A stretch of 50,465 nt of DNA, taken from sequence record NC_105618.1. One strand, given 5' to 3'. Position 1 is the stretch's first letter. Each line of letters begins with the position of its first letter. The notes under the pieces were generated by a model, which ran no database searches, had not been told where the DNA came from, and saw nothing but the letters and a program-made list of their open reading frames with translations. This DNA comes from a phage. Position numbers and translations under genes: made by a program. This document shows, one piece after another, positions 6,675 to 47,104 of this stretch.

Positions 6675-6689
6675 TAACAAAAAGTGCTA
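6675..6689. promoter_or_regulatory. palindromic motif (operator-like) before major capsid gene
   Basis: TAACA-AAAAG-TGCTA. Confidence 0.4.
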
Positions 6690-10438: not shown

Positions 10439-10453
10439 TAACAAAAAGTGCTA
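10439..10453. promoter_or_regulatory. palindromic motif abutting RBS of tail chaperone gene
   Basis: TAACA-AAAAG-TGCTA directly followed by ttaACCAATCAGGAGA and ATG 10476. Confidence 0.4.
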
Positions 10454-21324: not shown

Positions 21325-21851
21325 TTGTATGCCCTCGTCGTTAGTGTGTTTGAATTGTATGTCGCATTTACTTTTATTGCAATAGTTCGATTACAATTTT
21401 TTTCGCGTAACAGGTGTCTATTTTTGTAACTGGAAGTGGTGTTACAAAATCGACCTCATTCGACCGCAGGTAGATATGATAAAAACTCTATATAATATAT
21501 ATAGATAGATAATATTTAATTTTAGCTTTATATATATAATTATTGCTGTGTAACAGTTGTCTATCATGTAACAGGTGATTTGATTGATTCGTCAAATTTC
21601 TATCATATATGTTCAAAATTTAATCAATCTTGGTTCTATTCATGGATATCTGTGTATTTATAAGAAAAAGCGGTTACAAGTGTTACACAATATACACCAC
21701 ATAAAATCAAGGTTAATCTATTGATTCCATTGATGCTGGTTGTAACTTGAGCGATATAGACACACGATTACACACCAATTACATGTATTCGATTGACTAA
21801 ACGCTGTTAATGGCTATAATGGATTCATCGTAAACGAAGGAGATAAACGAA
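21325..21851. promoter_or_regulatory. AT-rich divergent control region with repeats
   Basis: 527 bp without ORFs; repeats GTAACAG(G/T)TGTCTAT and TCTATATAATATATATAG; contains sigma70-like promoter TTGACT-16-TATAAT. Confidence 0.6.
21793..21820 (+). promoter_or_regulatory. sigma70-like promoter for recombination operon
   Basis: TTGACT, 16 nt spacer, TATAAT, about 30 nt upstream of RBS of 21852 gene. Confidence 0.55.
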
Positions 21852-26264: not shown

Positions 26265-26342
26265 AGTATAAACTCCTTAAGTAAATAGCACGAATTGCTA
26301 AGCACTGATTTTATCATTGTGGTACTGGTCTTGCAATGGGCA

Positions 26343-27310: not shown

Positions 27311-27350
27311 CCAAATAAAAAACGCGTAGAAGGATGTTAACCCGCTACGC
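27311..27350 (-). terminator. intrinsic terminator
   Basis: ACGCGTAG...CTACGCGT hairpin followed by T-run on minus strand. Confidence 0.55.
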
Positions 27351-27360
27351 GTCGTTTGTT

Positions 27361-27813
27361 TTAACTAAAAATGCTATTTGTCGTTCCAATATCTTCCTTC
27401 TTCACGACCCGCATAAACTTCTTGTTTTTGCAGCGCTTCTCAAGGCACTTTCCGTTCCCATCAAACTTCAGATCGAATCGCAGCCATGCGGCCCGAAATC
27501 CTTTGCAACCCTGTCGGCGATAAGCACGATGCGCCGCTTCAGCGCCTTGCCAGGAAATCATATTTCGATCCTTCCAACCTTGAACCGTCTGGTTGCTAAC
27601 TTTCAGAGCCTTTGCACAAGCCGCCGGACCACCATAATATTCAATAAGAGCATCCAATCGCGCCCTCAGTCCTGCGCGCGTTTCTTCTTTATGGATATAA
27701 AATCCGCAGCGCTGGCGGGGCTTTTTGTCTTTACCGCGTCGTGTTCCGTTGTTACCATTGATGTGACGTTTATCGATTTCACCAGTAGACTCTGCGATAC
27801 GTTTCATATTCAT
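27361..27813 (-). CDS. putative HTH DNA-binding regulator
   Basis: KALKVSNQTVQGWKDR helix-turn-helix-like segment; in-frame ATG 27813 preceded by AGGAGA; palindromic motif lies in its 5' leader. Confidence 0.45.
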   Translation of the reverse strand: MNMKRIAESTGEIDKRHINGNNGTRRGKDKKPRQRCGFYIHKEETRAGLRARLDALIEYYGGPAACAKALKVSNQTVQGWKDRNMISWQGAEAAHRAYRRQGCKGFRAAWLRFDLKFDGNGKCLEKRCKNKKFMRVVKKEDIGTTNSIFS

Positions 27814-27827
27814 CTTAATTCTCCTGT

Positions 27828-27870
27828 AGCACTTTTTGCTAAAAACGTTTACTGTATGCCGTGTATTATA
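27828..27870 (+). promoter_or_regulatory. palindromic-motif promoter module (helicase operon)
   Basis: TAGCA-N5-TGCTA, 22 nt, TATTAT; overlaps RBS/start of divergent HTH gene. Confidence 0.5.
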
Positions 27871-27894
27871 TCGTAAACGATACAACGATTCAAA
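27866..27894 (-). promoter_or_regulatory. sigma70-like promoter of HTH regulator gene
   Basis: minus-strand TTGAAT, 17 nt spacer, TATAAT; approximate coordinates. Confidence 0.45.
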
Positions 27895-27907
27895 GGATTA
27901 AATAGCC

Positions 27908-29926
27908 GTGACAATTAACATCAAAAAGCAAATCGCATTACTTGGCGAGGACTATATAAAACGCACTCAAGAACGATTCACTGTTGGTGAGGTCGTTCCG
28001 TATCCGTACCAGGTTGTTGCTTATGCTGAGATCGCAAAACGCCTATCAAATTATGAGCATCCATTCTTTGTTAAAGCGTCAGTATCGGCGGGTAAGACCA
28101 TCATTTTTGCTATGGTTGCAAAGCAGTGTCAAAAAATGGGCTTGAAAATGCTTGTGCTGGCACGCCAGGGTGAGATTGTCGATCAGGATAGTGAAGAGAT
28201 CGACAATTTCGGAGTGACTAACTCTATATTCTCAGCGTCACTTGGAATCAAGTCTTGCTACTTCCCGATCGTGGTAGGCTCTGAGGGCACTGTTGCAAAT
28301 GGTTTAAATAATGAGTTGGCTGATTTTGTCCCTCACGTAATCGGGATAGATGAATGTCACCAGGTGGATTGGGAAGACCTTGCGCAAGCCATAGACGGAA
28401 AGGAAACAATGGAACAGATGCGGGGAGAGAAAGGGAAGATTATCATGGACGGTGATACTCCTCTGATTGGTAATGATGGAAAGCCTCTTCTTGGAACTAA
28501 GCGAAGCCAGTACACGATCGTAATCATGGAGATGATGCGTCGCTGTAAAGAGGTTCACGGGCATGACCTCAGAATATTTGGAATGACTGGATCTGAATTT
28601 AGGGGAGTTGTTCCAATCCTAGTTGAAAATCCAAAAGCATTGGGATTCTGGCGCGAGCGAGTTACTGATATCGACACTAACTATCTTATTGAGTTTGGCT
28701 CTGTCGTTCCGACGATATTCGGCTCAACAGACGGAGTTCACTACGATCTGGATAAGTTCAAGGCGTCTAGCGAGGACGGGGTTCAGGACTTTACAGAGAA
28801 AGATATGAAGGCGATGGAAGATGAGATCCTTCATGATAAATCTCTGACTCAGCGAATCATGCAAATGGTTGCCAAAAAGGCTGAAGAGCGTAACGCTGTT
28901 TTGATTACGTGCGCCGGGGTGCGTCACTGTAAAGAGGCTGCTGCGGCACTTCCTCCAGGGAGCACCTATGCAATCATCACTGGCGACACAGACACAAAAA
29001 CTCGCAAGAAGATTCTGGATGACGTAAGGGCTGGGAAGATTAAATATACCTTTCAGGTAATGGCGCTAACGACTGGCGTTAACGTTCCAAATTGGGATTT
29101 CAGTGTCATACTTCGAAAGATAGGATCGCTCACGCTGTTAATTCAACTTTTGGGTAGGGGTATGCGACTGCTTAAATCCTGGCAGGTTGCTGAAGGGATG
29201 GTTAAGCAAGACCATCTTGTATGGGATTTCGCTGGCACTATGGATGAGTTGGGGCAGCTTTATTTCGATCCGATACTTGAGCAGGCACAATTTCAGAAGC
29301 GATTCGAAAACGGCAAAGACCCGAAAACGTGTCCGAAGTGTGGTTGCGTAAATAGCTTTTACGCTCGCCGATGCGTTAACGTTATCGACGGTGAGCGATG
29401 CGATCACTTCTGGACTTCTCAGATTTGCGAGGACCAGGTTGATGAGCGAACCGGGAAAATCCTTGTTAAAGGTTGCGGTGCCGAGAATGACGTTGTCGCG
29501 AGAGTATGTCGTTGTTGTGATGTTTCTCTCGTCGATCCTAACCTGAAGTTGTCCGGTAAGGCGTACACCAAGAATGACTGGTACGAGGTAAAGAATTTTG
29601 AGGTTACGCTAACCAAAAACCAAAAGGGCATTATATACAAATACACGCTGATTAATGATGACGGTGATGAGTTCAAGGCGTATGAAAAATTCTTCCCTGA
29701 GTCAGACTCTAAGATTTGCGGTACGCTATGGAAAACAAAAGGTGTATTACCTCATGTGTCAGATCCTAAAATGCGCCGCTACTTTATCGGAATGAAGAAC
29801 GCCATAAAGATCGTGCAATACTCTCATCATATAGCGCATCCGGTACGCGTTACTCATAGACGCAACCAGAAGAAAGAGGATATTATTTCACGCAAAGATT
29901 TCGGTATGGAGGATATCCCGGAATGA
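27908..29926 (+). CDS. ATP-dependent helicase (SF2, DEAD/DEAH-like)
   Basis: Walker A SVSAGKT, DEAH-like IDECHQ, C-terminal Cys clusters. Confidence 0.8.
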   Translation: MTINIKKQIALLGEDYIKRTQERFTVGEVVPYPYQVVAYAEIAKRLSNYEHPFFVKASVSAGKTIIFAMVAKQCQKMGLKMLVLARQGEIVDQDSEEIDNFGVTNSIFSASLGIKSCYFPIVVGSEGTVANGLNNELADFVPHVIGIDECHQVDWEDLAQAIDGKETMEQMRGEKGKIIMDGDTPLIGNDGKPLLGTKRSQYTIVIMEMMRRCKEVHGHDLRIFGMTGSEFRGVVPILVENPKALGFWRERVTDIDTNYLIEFGSVVPTIFGSTDGVHYDLDKFKASSEDGVQDFTEKDMKAMEDEILHDKSLTQRIMQMVAKKAEERNAVLITCAGVRHCKEAAAALPPGSTYAIITGDTDTKTRKKILDDVRAGKIKYTFQVMALTTGVNVPNWDFSVILRKIGSLTLLIQLLGRGMRLLKSWQVAEGMVKQDHLVWDFAGTMDELGQLYFDPILEQAQFQKRFENGKDPKTCPKCGCVNSFYARRCVNVIDGERCDHFWTSQICEDQVDERTGKILVKGCGAENDVVARVCRCCDVSLVDPNLKLSGKAYTKNDWYEVKNFEVTLTKNQKGIIYKYTLINDDGDEFKAYEKFFPESDSKICGTLWKTKGVLPHVSDPKMRRYFIGMKNAIKIVQYSHHIAHPVRVTHRRNQKKEDIISRKDFGMEDIPE

Positions 29927-30339
29927 TTACAGATAAAGGCGATTACTTAGAGTTTTACGAGCGAGATCCTAGCGACACTCGAAAGGAGGACGCTCATCAA
30001 GTAGATTGCGTGTCCTGGTTGAAATACAATTTTCCTCAGCTTCTATTTTGGCACACAGTTAACGAAGGTGAAAAAACAATCACCTCGGCACTTAGGGATG
30101 AGCAGGCTGGATTGCTTAAAGGCGTATCAGACTTCGTTATCCTGATAGGTGTAAACTCACGCTACCCGTTTGCAGCTATCGAACTCAAGCGAGTTAATAA
30201 GTCCGGAAAAGGAAAGGCATCACCAGTCAGCGATAAGCAAAGGGAGTTTCTCAAAAAGGTTCGGGATCGCGGTGGATTCTCTGCCGTTGCATACGGATTT
30301 GAGCAATTCAAGCTGGCGATATACGATTTAACTAAATAG
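29923..30339 (+). CDS. VRR-NUC domain nuclease
   Basis: about 138 aa; GVSDFVIL ... IELK pattern consistent with a D...(D/E)XK core of VRR-NUC proteins. Confidence 0.6.
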   Translation: MITDKGDYLEFYERDPSDTRKEDAHQVDCVSWLKYNFPQLLFWHTVNEGEKTITSALRDEQAGLLKGVSDFVILIGVNSRYPFAAIELKRVNKSGKGKASPVSDKQREFLKKVRDRGGFSAVAYGFEQFKLAIYDLTK

Positions 30340-30379
30340 CACTTTTTGTTAAAACCGCCGGAATGGAATCTGGCATTAT
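30337..30379 (+). promoter_or_regulatory. palindromic-motif promoter module
   Basis: TAGCA-N5-TGTTA, 22 nt, CATTAT; upstream of Dam gene. Confidence 0.45.
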
Positions 30380-41092: not shown

Positions 41093-41701
41093 TTCCAATA
41101 ATTGCTCATTATTCCATCAATAGTGGAATAGTTGGAATAATTGCGATCCCGATTGATCTCGAATGATGAAACGTGATTATTGCATGGTGTGCAACAGTTG
41201 GTTGATTTGTTGCTGAGAATGCAATGATTGTGAGAGGGAGGATTTAGTGTTACCCGGTTCGCCTGGTAGTCATCTCCATTTTTAGCAAAAAGTGCTATCG
41301 ATTACACTTTAACTTGTCACGACTGTAATATTTGTCTAGAATCGCCATTGTGACAAAATTACACACTGTGACGCCTCTAAATATACATATAGATATATGT
41401 ATCTATATAATATATATAGTGTTTTTTTTATTTATATATATAGATAATTATATTGTAATAGCTGTGTATAGTTGTCTTACATTGTCTAGCGTACTGTTGG
41501 CATATTTCTATCTGCATGTTTATATATACAGTAATTTTTTGTGAGCTATATATTTCTATAGTGACTCTATACAGCTAGACAAATGTTACACAGCTTAAAA
41601 TTGGCTCGCAGGCGTTGACATATCTGCATTGCGCTGTCACAATGGCAATTGTTGACGCGTTATGACACCATTTACACACGAATAGACAAAGAGGTTATAT
41701 T
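41084..41701. promoter_or_regulatory. AT-rich divergent control region with repeats
   Basis: about 618 bp without ORFs of 60 aa or more; shares TCTATATAATATATATAG and GCTGTGTA..AGTTGTCT blocks with 21325-21851; GGAATA(A/G)TTG repeats. Confidence 0.6.
41283..41297. promoter_or_regulatory. isolated palindromic motif in control region
   Basis: TAGCA-AAAAG-TGCTA with no -10-like hexamer at the usual spacing. Confidence 0.35.
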
Positions 41702-46584: not shown

Positions 46585-46627
46585 TAGCACGAATTGCTAA
46601 AACCTATCAAGGGGAATGCGCTATGAT
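46585..46627 (+). promoter_or_regulatory. palindromic-motif promoter module
   Basis: TAGCA-N5-TGCTA, 22 nt, TATGAT in hairpin GGGGAAT...ATTCCCC. Confidence 0.5.
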
Positions 46628-46657
46628 TCCCCTACACCAAAAAACGAGGGAACACTC

Positions 46658-47104
46658 ATGAAACATTTGATTTGCATTGAAACACCTAACGATGAATACA
46701 CCCTGCACGGCATCGGAATGTTCAAAGGTCACTACATGACAGCAAGTATTTATGATGCGCGTCGCGGCGATGGCGATCTGATGATTACCTCAAAAGAGGT
46801 TAATCCGTACATCATGCAGAATCTTGGAAATAACGAATATATGGCCTACGGCTGCAACGCGGTGTATAAGCATATCAAGATCCGCAAGCGTGTCGTGCGA
46901 TCATTCAAGAAAATTGCAATGAAACACTGGAAGATGAGCAAGAAAGATGCCGGACATTGGGCGCGTGACGTTGCATATTCATACTTCTACCGTAACGGCG
47001 AATCCTGCTACTTTCTGATCGATGAACTTATGGAAAACTACGGTGGCGACTTCAGTCAGGGTAGCTTTGATGACTGGGCCAACTATGAGATCAGTTGCTG
47101 GTAA
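46658..47104 (+). CDS. hypothetical protein
   Basis: GAGGGA RBS before in-frame ATG 46658 (track start 46616 lies inside promoter module). Confidence 0.45.
   Translation: MKHLICIETPNDEYTLHGIGMFKGHYMTASIYDARRGDGDLMITSKEVNPYIMQNLGNNEYMAYGCNAVYKHIKIRKRVVRSFKKIAMKHWKMSKKDAGHWARDVAYSYFYRNGESCYFLIDELMENYGGDFSQGSFDDWANYEISCW

Follow-up and report, generated by a model that had tools for sequence, protein, structure and literature searches.

Which protein reads the palindrome that stands in the leader of the pir-like gene of a T1-like phage, and is that protein Pir itself? The question is raised by positions 27,361 to 27,907 of phage record NC_105618.1, analysed at its full length of 50,465 nucleotides (nt), here called the window. 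At this place the gene for a small helix-turn-helix (HTH) protein and a helicase gene are transcribed away from each other. A reading made from the sequence alone had proposed that the HTH protein is an early master regulator, which binds TAGCA-N5-TGCTA, represses itself and switches on the other promoters that carry this motif. As a whole, that interpretation is partly supported. Pir is a real autoregulated early regulator, but that it alone reads the motif is, on balance, not likely. The explanation favoured here, with a probability of about 0.45, is that the motif is read chiefly by a host protein of the MarA family, and that Pir, acting early and in the manner of Cro, may use the site as well.

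The repeated promoter element

In the window TAGCA-N5-TGCTA is present in 11 perfect copies, compared with 0.03 expected, and T1 has 10 copies. No other palindrome of the 5-Nx-5 type is enriched in either genome. The palindrome forms the symmetric centre of an oriented element of greater length, which can be written aATAGCAC-N3-TTG(C/T)TAAAAc when one or two mismatches are allowed. With a matrix made from 19 copies, 29 sites in the window score 12 bits or more. Of the approximately 21 copies of promoter type in the window, 17 have a −10-like hexamer (such as TATAGT) exactly 22 nt beyond the 15-mer, and the start codon is found 45–67 nt after the 15-mer. The promoter-type copies precede the helicase and primase genes, the dam operon and most of the small early genes, on both strands.

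The same element was seen in the 2024 re-annotation of phage TLS as a 21-nt direct repeat, aaATAGCACnnnTTGnTAAAA, present at 21 places and also in T1, Rtp and Rogue1 (PMC11447400); it has the same TTT, GAA and TAA spacer groups as in the window. One of the TLS repeats, DR11, is beside promoter P57 in the leader of the Pir homologue of that phage, and a stoperator, an enhancer site or an UP element were offered as possible functions of the repeat (PMC11447400). The fixed distance of 22 nt to the −10, the marbox match described below and a link to an HTH protein are not mentioned in that paper (PMC11447400).

For a closer view of symmetry, 77 promoter-type copies were pooled from the window, T1, Klebsiella phage KP36, Vibrio phage Vc1, and L005 and L006, two distant Logan metagenomic contigs that were obtained by exact look-up. 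Positions A2, G3, C4, A5, T10, G12 and A15–A17 are essentially invariant in the pooled set, and an A-tract lies on the promoter-proximal side of the element. At position 13, 44 copies have C and 32 have T, an alternation that breaks the palindrome. The copy beside pir is a perfect palindrome, but perfect palindromes make up only 27 of the 77 (35%), the flanks are asymmetric, and of the mirror pairs 3/13 is complementary in 57% of copies and 6/10 in 1%. Palindromy is therefore not the property that has been conserved, and the element is asymmetric. Judged by its sequence, this asymmetry appears to be a better fit to a monomeric two-part reader than to a symmetric dimer of the Cro type.

Likeness to the marbox

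The element resembles the marbox, the site to which the host regulators MarA, SoxS and Rob bind, and RamA in Klebsiella and Salmonella. The marbox is a non-palindromic, oriented site with the pattern gcannwwntgnnaaa; at class II promoters it is found in the forward orientation, overlapping the −35 region and centred between −36 and −55 (PMC12052159). Beside pir, GCAnnWWnTGnnAAA is present at 27829–27843, centred at approximately −41 of the helicase start and +22 of the pir start when both are placed from their −10 hexamers. Exact matches to the pattern number 21 in the window, compared with 0.95 expected, and 60 of the 77 pooled copies match. The alternation of C and T at position 13 falls on a position that the published pattern leaves free. 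In the older 20-bp marbox consensus, position 13 is a pyrimidine position.

The likeness extends to the arrangement of the promoter. As at the class II marbox promoter of micF, the element is in forward orientation, a −35 hexamer is lacking, the site is centred at approximately −41 from the start given by the −10, and the 15-mer is separated by 22 nt from the −10. In micF the equivalent 15-mer is followed after exactly 22 nt by TAGAAT, and 7 nt more lead to the annotated 5′ end, which is the spacing of the phage promoters; RamA is positioned at approximately −41 on micF (PMC8811837). When the phage matrix was applied to E. coli K-12, the marRAB marbox, CGATGCCACGTTTTGCTAAATCG, was recognized at 12.9 bits as the sole match of at least 3 bits in 1.4 kb, and the top match at micF was the class II marbox, ACAGCACTGAATGTCAAAAC, at 10.0 bits. 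Agreement as exact as this in pattern, orientation and spacing would hardly be expected by chance. The marbox identity of this promoter element of the family, and the −10 shared between pir and helicase, appear not to have been reported so far, and the exact 15-mers were found in no paper.

There are also differences from host marboxes. The phage element belongs to the genome of a virulent phage, is present some 20 times per genome, and its copies are much closer together. Unlike host marboxes, it has the additional conserved positions A2, C6, T10 and T14, and many copies have hairpins around the −10. In a tblastn search with MarA against the window, T1, Vc1 and KP36, no phage-encoded homologue was recognized (best E = 0.07).

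The −10 shared by pir and helicase

The near-consensus sigma70 promoter that had been claimed for the pir-like gene was recovered by a promoter scan, TTGAAT-17-TATAAT at 27893..27865 on the minus strand, with 10 of 12 consensus matches. Its −35 hexamer, TTGAAT (27888..27893, −), is separated by the 17-nt spacer from the −10 hexamer, TATAAT (27865..27870, −), which is conserved in T1, KP36, L005 and L006; the promoter is equivalent to TLS P57. The palindrome, TAGCACTTTTTGCTA at 27827–27841, lies as described between this −10 and the ribosome-binding site, at approximately +18 to +32 of the transcript predicted from the −10. By direct reading, the Shine-Dalgarno sequence of pir is AGGAGA (27820..27825, −), 6 nt before the ATG at 27813 and one base downstream of the 15-mer.

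The further claim that this palindrome is also the −42 element of the helicase promoter agrees with the positions found. On the plus strand the 15-mer is followed after exactly 22 nt by TATTAT (27864..27869, +), the −10 hexamer of a promoter without a −35 hexamer, of which the palindrome is centred at approximately −41/−42. The oriented element, gTAGCACTTTTTGCTAAAAAC (27826..27846, +), points to the helicase gene (27908..29926, +), which begins with GTG at 27908 and encodes ResIII and Helicase_C domains. T1, KP36, Vc1 and the two metagenomic contigs have the same layout.

The −10 hexamers of pir and helicase overlap by 5 bp on opposite strands, an arrangement kept in T1, KP36, L005 and L006, so that only one polymerase can occupy the promoter pair at a time. 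A protein bound at approximately −41 would thus favour helicase and would disfavour pir, both by competition at the shared −10 and by its position at approximately +22 of the pir transcript. Whatever the identity of the binder, occupancy of the element would provide a simple route to pir shut-off.

The favoured explanation can be set out on this arrangement. Transcription of pir would proceed from its near-consensus sigma70 promoter, which has its −10 in common with the helicase promoter on the opposite strand. The element would be a class II marbox like that of E. coli micF, read by a monomeric host activator of the MarA/SoxS/Rob/RamA type and possibly also by Pir. When occupied, it would pull RNA polymerase onto the helicase promoter, and the shared −10 together with the block at approximately +22 would turn the pir promoter down. 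Pir would act mainly as a Cro-like shut-off of a few sigma70 immediate-early promoters. In the wider form of this explanation, to which somewhat less than even odds are given, the approximately 20 early and middle promoters of the Drexlerviridae would be genuine class II marbox promoters, by which most non-structural expression would be wired to the stress and resistance regulators MarA/SoxS/Rob/RamA of the host, with Pir as a Cro-like switch that would share or modulate this input through the shared −10.

One additional feature of the leader may be recorded. In the pir mRNA the palindrome at 27827–27841 can form a stem of 5 bp with a loop of 5 nt (UAGCA-AAAAG-UGCUA), one base upstream of the Shine-Dalgarno sequence, and this stem-loop might affect the translation or the stability of the transcript.

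The Pir protein and its relatives

An open reading frame of 150 codons for amino acids (aa) is present at 27361..27813 on the minus strand, as had been read from the sequence, and its product is 96.7% identical over 150 aa to T1 Orf23. The latter has been named Pir, for "prophage induction regulator" (Laganenka et al., 2019; PMC6737242). In PHROGs the window protein belongs to phrog_2856, "transcriptional regulator" (E 3.6e-76). Two Pfam families match aa 54–84 below threshold: P22_Cro with 23.3 bits (cutoff 30.2) and YdaS with 19.2 bits (cutoff 30). The structure prediction that had been proposed as a check was made with AlphaFold from 33 homologues and has a pLDDT (per-residue confidence) of approximately 95 for aa 40–130 and 55 for aa 1–35. 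It shows a Cro-type core of five helices (aa ~43–100), in which aa 63–70 and 74–83 form the HTH; a fold without a DNA-binding domain would have spoken against the earlier view, and since an HTH is present in the model this is not the outcome. From its sequence and predicted fold, the protein is the counterpart of T1 Orf23/Pir, an early HTH regulator of the Cro fold.

Outside the core there are a small C-terminal part with a conserved RxDLxFD and a basic, conserved N-terminal arm (aa 1–35), for which the model is of low confidence. The arm, with DKRxxNGNNGTxRGxD, and the C-terminal RxDLxFD are the best-conserved parts of Pir; the recognition helix is not. Pir does not resemble the AraC/XylS proteins, to which MarA belongs and which have two HTH motifs within a single domain of approximately 100 aa, as the model has a single HTH and no AraC-type Pfam match was obtained.

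Homologues of Pir are found in 824 isolate-phage records, all of them T1-like, and a profile search of 1.8 billion representative proteins gave approximately 15 full-length cluster representatives and otherwise generic Cro-like matches only. Scans of IMG/VR and JGI metagenomes yielded no distant relatives, and searches of isolate phages yielded only ordinary T1-like phages. When motif-rich phages without Pir were sought by scanning for ATAGCACNNNTTGYTAAAAC, almost all matches were T1-like contigs of 46–53 kb, and the remainder were single matches at chance level. Approximately 20 public records with MG0656xx accessions, labelled C. jejuni ("Campylobacter phage" A113, A134 and others), carry T1-like pir/helicase regions. 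These are probably T1-like phages of E. coli with wrongly assigned hosts.

The two metagenomic contigs are T1-like, and their Pir proteins are only approximately 35% identical to the window protein and differ in an N-terminal insertion. In L005 and L006 the gene order is retained, pir has its TATAAT and its leader motif, and additional ATAGCAC..TTGCTAAA copies again stand at the usual distance from a −10. Helix 3 of Pir reads NQTVQGWKDR, NQTVQGWKER, IQVVQQWRKR, CVRLTAYRLR, RHRVARWVEK and GLRMVLWKQK in the six phages and has no invariant position, yet the motif is unchanged in KP36, Vc1, L005 and L006. A regulator with some 20 fixed sites per genome is expected to keep the residues with which it contacts the bases. 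The combination of an invariant motif and an unconserved helix 3 indicates either that helix 3 is not the reader, in which case the invariant arm might be, or that a conserved host protein reads the site. Since the motif does not vary, the comparison shows only that helix 3 is not tied to it.

Published experiments on T1 Pir and Orf65

T1 is a sister phage with the same gene, in the same order of primase, pir and helicase and with the same promoter and leader motif. Green fluorescent protein (GFP) reporters in E. coli showed activation by T1 Pir at the hol and dam promoters and repression at those of recE and of pir itself, and CRISPR interference (CRISPRi) against pir blocked lysis (PMC6737242). 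The pir promoter is active in phage-free cells and in a cell-free system, in agreement with the proposal that it needs no activator, and it is repressed by cAMP-CRP, in the cell-free system also (PMC6737242). Orf65, a second T1 protein, acts as a repressor of pir and as an activator of its own, Pir-independent promoter (PMC6737242). The paper did not define a binding site for Pir and did not connect Pir with the repeated motif (PMC6737242). A later letter disputes the claim of lysogeny made there, but not the reporter assays (PMC8262962), and a search of the literature gave no work that follows up Pir. As these assays were made with a protein 96.7% identical to that of the window, the description "autoregulated early regulator" was already known; the pir gene itself is ordinary and known, and is the one regulator here with experimental support.

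The T1 reporter fragments were scanned with the site matrix. The dam fragment, activated by Pir, has a forward copy of the motif (33 bits), and the Pir-repressed pir fragment has a copy in its leader. No copy of at least 8 bits was found in the hol fragment, which is activated, or in the recE fragment, which is repressed, and the best copy of all, forward and perfect at 34.7 bits, is in the fragment of Pir-independent orf65. The published data thus support Pir as a regulator and do not map it cleanly onto the motif. The idea of an early autoregulator that switches on the motif promoters accordingly agrees with the published data in the regulatory role, the autorepression and the activation of dam, and is not borne out at orf65, hol and recE. 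Among the spacer-triplet classes TTT, GAA and TAA, the helicase copy is TTT in all six phages, the Pir-responsive sites of T1 dam and pir are also TTT, and the Pir-independent orf65 site is GAA. Different classes could be served by different readers.

A search for a common Pir operator gave no k-mer of 7 or more that is present in all four Pir-responsive T1 fragments. The T1 pir and recE promoters, both Pir-repressed, have in common GCTATAAT, CGTTTACG/CGTAAACG and GTTGTAAC. The CGTTTAC/GTAAACG elements are retained in the window at 27840–27880 and 21815–21845, and the shared −10 of the pir promoter is flanked by them as an inverted repeat, CGTTTAC-N20-GTAAACG. This repeat could be a separate Pir operator, with weak enrichment, and it is missing from KP36 and L006. 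The sharing of GCTATAAT, CGTTTACG and GTTGTAAC between pir and recE is weak and is not conserved in KP36 or L006.

Weighing the candidate readers

The chief competitor of the MarA-family explanation is that Pir reads the motif. Made first, it would bind as a Cro-like dimer or by its N-terminal arm, activate from approximately −42 and repress itself from the leader; a marbox-like site would then be the result of convergence or of deliberate mimicry. Lambda cI, which activates PRM, is the model for such activation, and dimers of the Cro/cI fold do activate from −42. Much of what speaks for Pir weighs at the same time against a host reader. Pir alone in E. coli raises the T1 dam reporter, in which the forward motif is the sole notable feature, and this is explained most simply if Pir acts on the motif; it also represses its own promoter, with the motif at approximately +18 to +32. 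The fold is that of Cro, and the centres of the half-sites are 10 bp apart. Pir and the motif occur together in every clade examined (T1, KP36, Vc1, L005, L006 and TLS), always with a copy adjoining pir; the 824 phage records with Pir are all T1-like; the motif is the sole enriched one in the genome, and Pir is the only T1 product annotated as a transcriptional regulator. The N-terminal arm, with DKRxxNGNNGTxRGxD, equals the motif in its invariance, and Pir could read DNA with it. To these points against a host reader must be added that Vibrio phage Vc1 keeps the motif, that the transcription starts were placed from −10 hexamers, and that the literature searched contained no experiment on the binding of a host factor to the element and no paper linking the marbox or MarA/SoxS/Rob to T1-like phages.

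Nevertheless, Pir as the reader is considered rather unlikely. It would have to leave the perfect motif of orf65 alone and act on the motif-less hol and recE fragments; conservation of the site is asymmetric, with 35% of copies palindromic; the recognition helix has changed where the motif has not; and the exact agreement with host marboxes in pattern, orientation and spacing would be improbable as a matter of chance. In the comparison with lambda cI at PRM, P22 c2 and related regulators of the Cro/cI fold, Pir differs by its conserved N-terminal arm of 35 residues and its C-terminal extension, by the lack of a conserved symmetric operator set, and by a recognition helix that is unconserved despite a conserved candidate site. 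The assignment of the palindrome as the operator of Pir is unproven and faces a strong rival, and a host factor that binds the palindrome, which the sequence-only reading had named as evidence against itself, is a live possibility on the sequence comparisons made here.

The remaining candidates, which are not fully exclusive of these two or of each other, carry little weight. Another phage protein may read the motif, and in Tunavirus the candidate is Orf65 (46658–47104), the published effects of which match the motif positions: one forward copy stands at approximately −42 of orf65, and another copy lies downstream of where pir transcription starts. This is improbable, as homologues of Orf65 are present in only 65 phage records and absent from KP36, which has 16 motif promoters, and the protein has no recognizable DNA-binding domain. 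Orf65 was rejected as a MarA-like protein: it has no Pfam match and no sequence match in PDB, its sole strong PHROG is phrog_10642, of unknown function, and its AlphaFold model (pLDDT 51) is too poor to use. It is very improbable that no dedicated protein binds the element and that RNA polymerase itself, for instance, contacts it in the manner of an UP element or a displaced −35, or that it is an inhibitory "stoperator". The A-tract on the promoter-proximal side would suit the former, and options of this kind are listed in the TLS paper (PMC11447400). However, TTGYTA at 22 nt from the −10 is too far away for a −35 hexamer, the invariant GCA, TG and AAA are typical of base-specific contacts by a protein, and the fixed spacing and orientation to the −10 in 17 of approximately 21 window copies argue for a positive promoter element and not for a stoperator. 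TTGCTA as an ordinary −35 hexamer was rejected because a 22-nt spacer is too long. A sigma54 promoter was rejected also: TAGCAC..TTGC resembles TGGCAC-N5-TTGC, but it has AG for GG, its two blocks would need to be 2 bp further apart, and a −10 of the sigma70 type follows at a fixed distance.

Neighbouring features and other observations

The region is 97–98% identical to that of T1-like phages of the genus Tunavirus such as SA12KD, Sfin-1 and LeonhardEuler. The gene order is that of T1: tail fibre, primase (−), HTH gene (−), divergent helicase (+), VRR-NUC nuclease and Dam. The pir-like gene thus sits between primase and the divergent helicase gene, and its sigma70-type promoter and motif copy are intergenic. 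Intergenic promoters of the sigma70 type number approximately five in the window, those of pir, recE, erf, capsid and the left-end early region; phage TLS has only three that are sigma70-like, P01, P51 and P57, of which P57 is equivalent to that of pir (PMC11447400). The recE promoter, TTGACT-16-TATAAT (21793..21820, +), is without the motif and corresponds to TLS P51, and its T1 counterpart is repressed by Pir (PMC6737242). The forward motif copy of the dam operon promoter is at 30337..30351 (+), and its T1 counterpart lies inside the reporter fragment activated by Pir (PMC6737242). At 46585..47104 (+), a perfect forward motif copy (46585–46599) precedes the homologue of Orf65 (46658–47104), the second regulator of T1 (PMC6737242).

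A second motif copy at the locus, TAGCATTTTTAGTTA (27376–27362), scores 22.4 bits by position weight matrix and overlaps the stop codon of pir. The element to which it belongs (27334..27376, −) has a GC-rich hairpin within the 22-nt spacer (fold z = −4.6) and TAACAT (27339–27334) as its −10. In phage SA12KD a terminator is annotated at the corresponding place, and this element is likely to be both the terminator of pir and the promoter of primase.

Most motif promoters have a short GC-rich inverted repeat that encloses the −10 or directly precedes it, for example GGGGTAtcttgcTATAGTTACCCC and AAGGCCAtttgaTATAGTGGCCTT. It is present at 27362(−), 31360, 36979(−), 37479(−), 37998(−), 39736(−), 42233, 42969, 44023, 44584, 45229, 46585, 47105 and 48602. 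The arms vary between promoters yet stay complementary, and folding of the 48 nt after the 15-mer gave z values that average −3.2, of which 15 of the 20 are lower than −2. Some of the hairpin copies coincide with annotated terminators, which suggests a fusion of terminator and promoter.

Copies in reverse orientation were seen at late genes (6675–6689, 10439–10453 and 26286–26300). Ahead of the major capsid gene, one copy occupies the spacer of TTGACG-16-TATTAT, and its GTGCTATTAT end makes an extended −10 (TGnTATTAT); this copy is conserved in T1 and Vc1. Another lies just ahead of the ribosome-binding site of the tail chaperone gene, and the third between a sigma70-like promoter and the ribosome-binding site of the tail fibre gene. 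Repression is the expected effect of a factor bound to these copies, a hint that the late genes are repressed early.

Clusters of AT-rich palindromes of the TATAT type are present at 21489–21540, upstream of recE, and at 41400–41445, in a divergent region matching the T1 genome end. The same clusters are found in T1 at 233–267 and 30015–30057. They may be origin or packaging-related sequences.

Meaning for T1-like phages

T1-like phages are common contaminants in laboratories and industry and are candidates for phage therapy. They time their transcription with almost no sigma70 promoters. If Pir is the reader of these sites, a protein of the Cro fold would be acting on a marbox-like sequence, and it might act on the promoters of the host mar regulon as well. 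If a host protein is the reader, expression of the phage would be tied to the response of the host to antibiotics and oxidative stress. Phage development would then respond to salicylate, bile, redox stress and resistance mutations of the mar type, which could matter for combinations of phage and antibiotics and for the growth of these phages in the gut. Dependence on MarA/SoxS/Rob/RamA could also help to explain why the family is nearly confined to the Enterobacterales.

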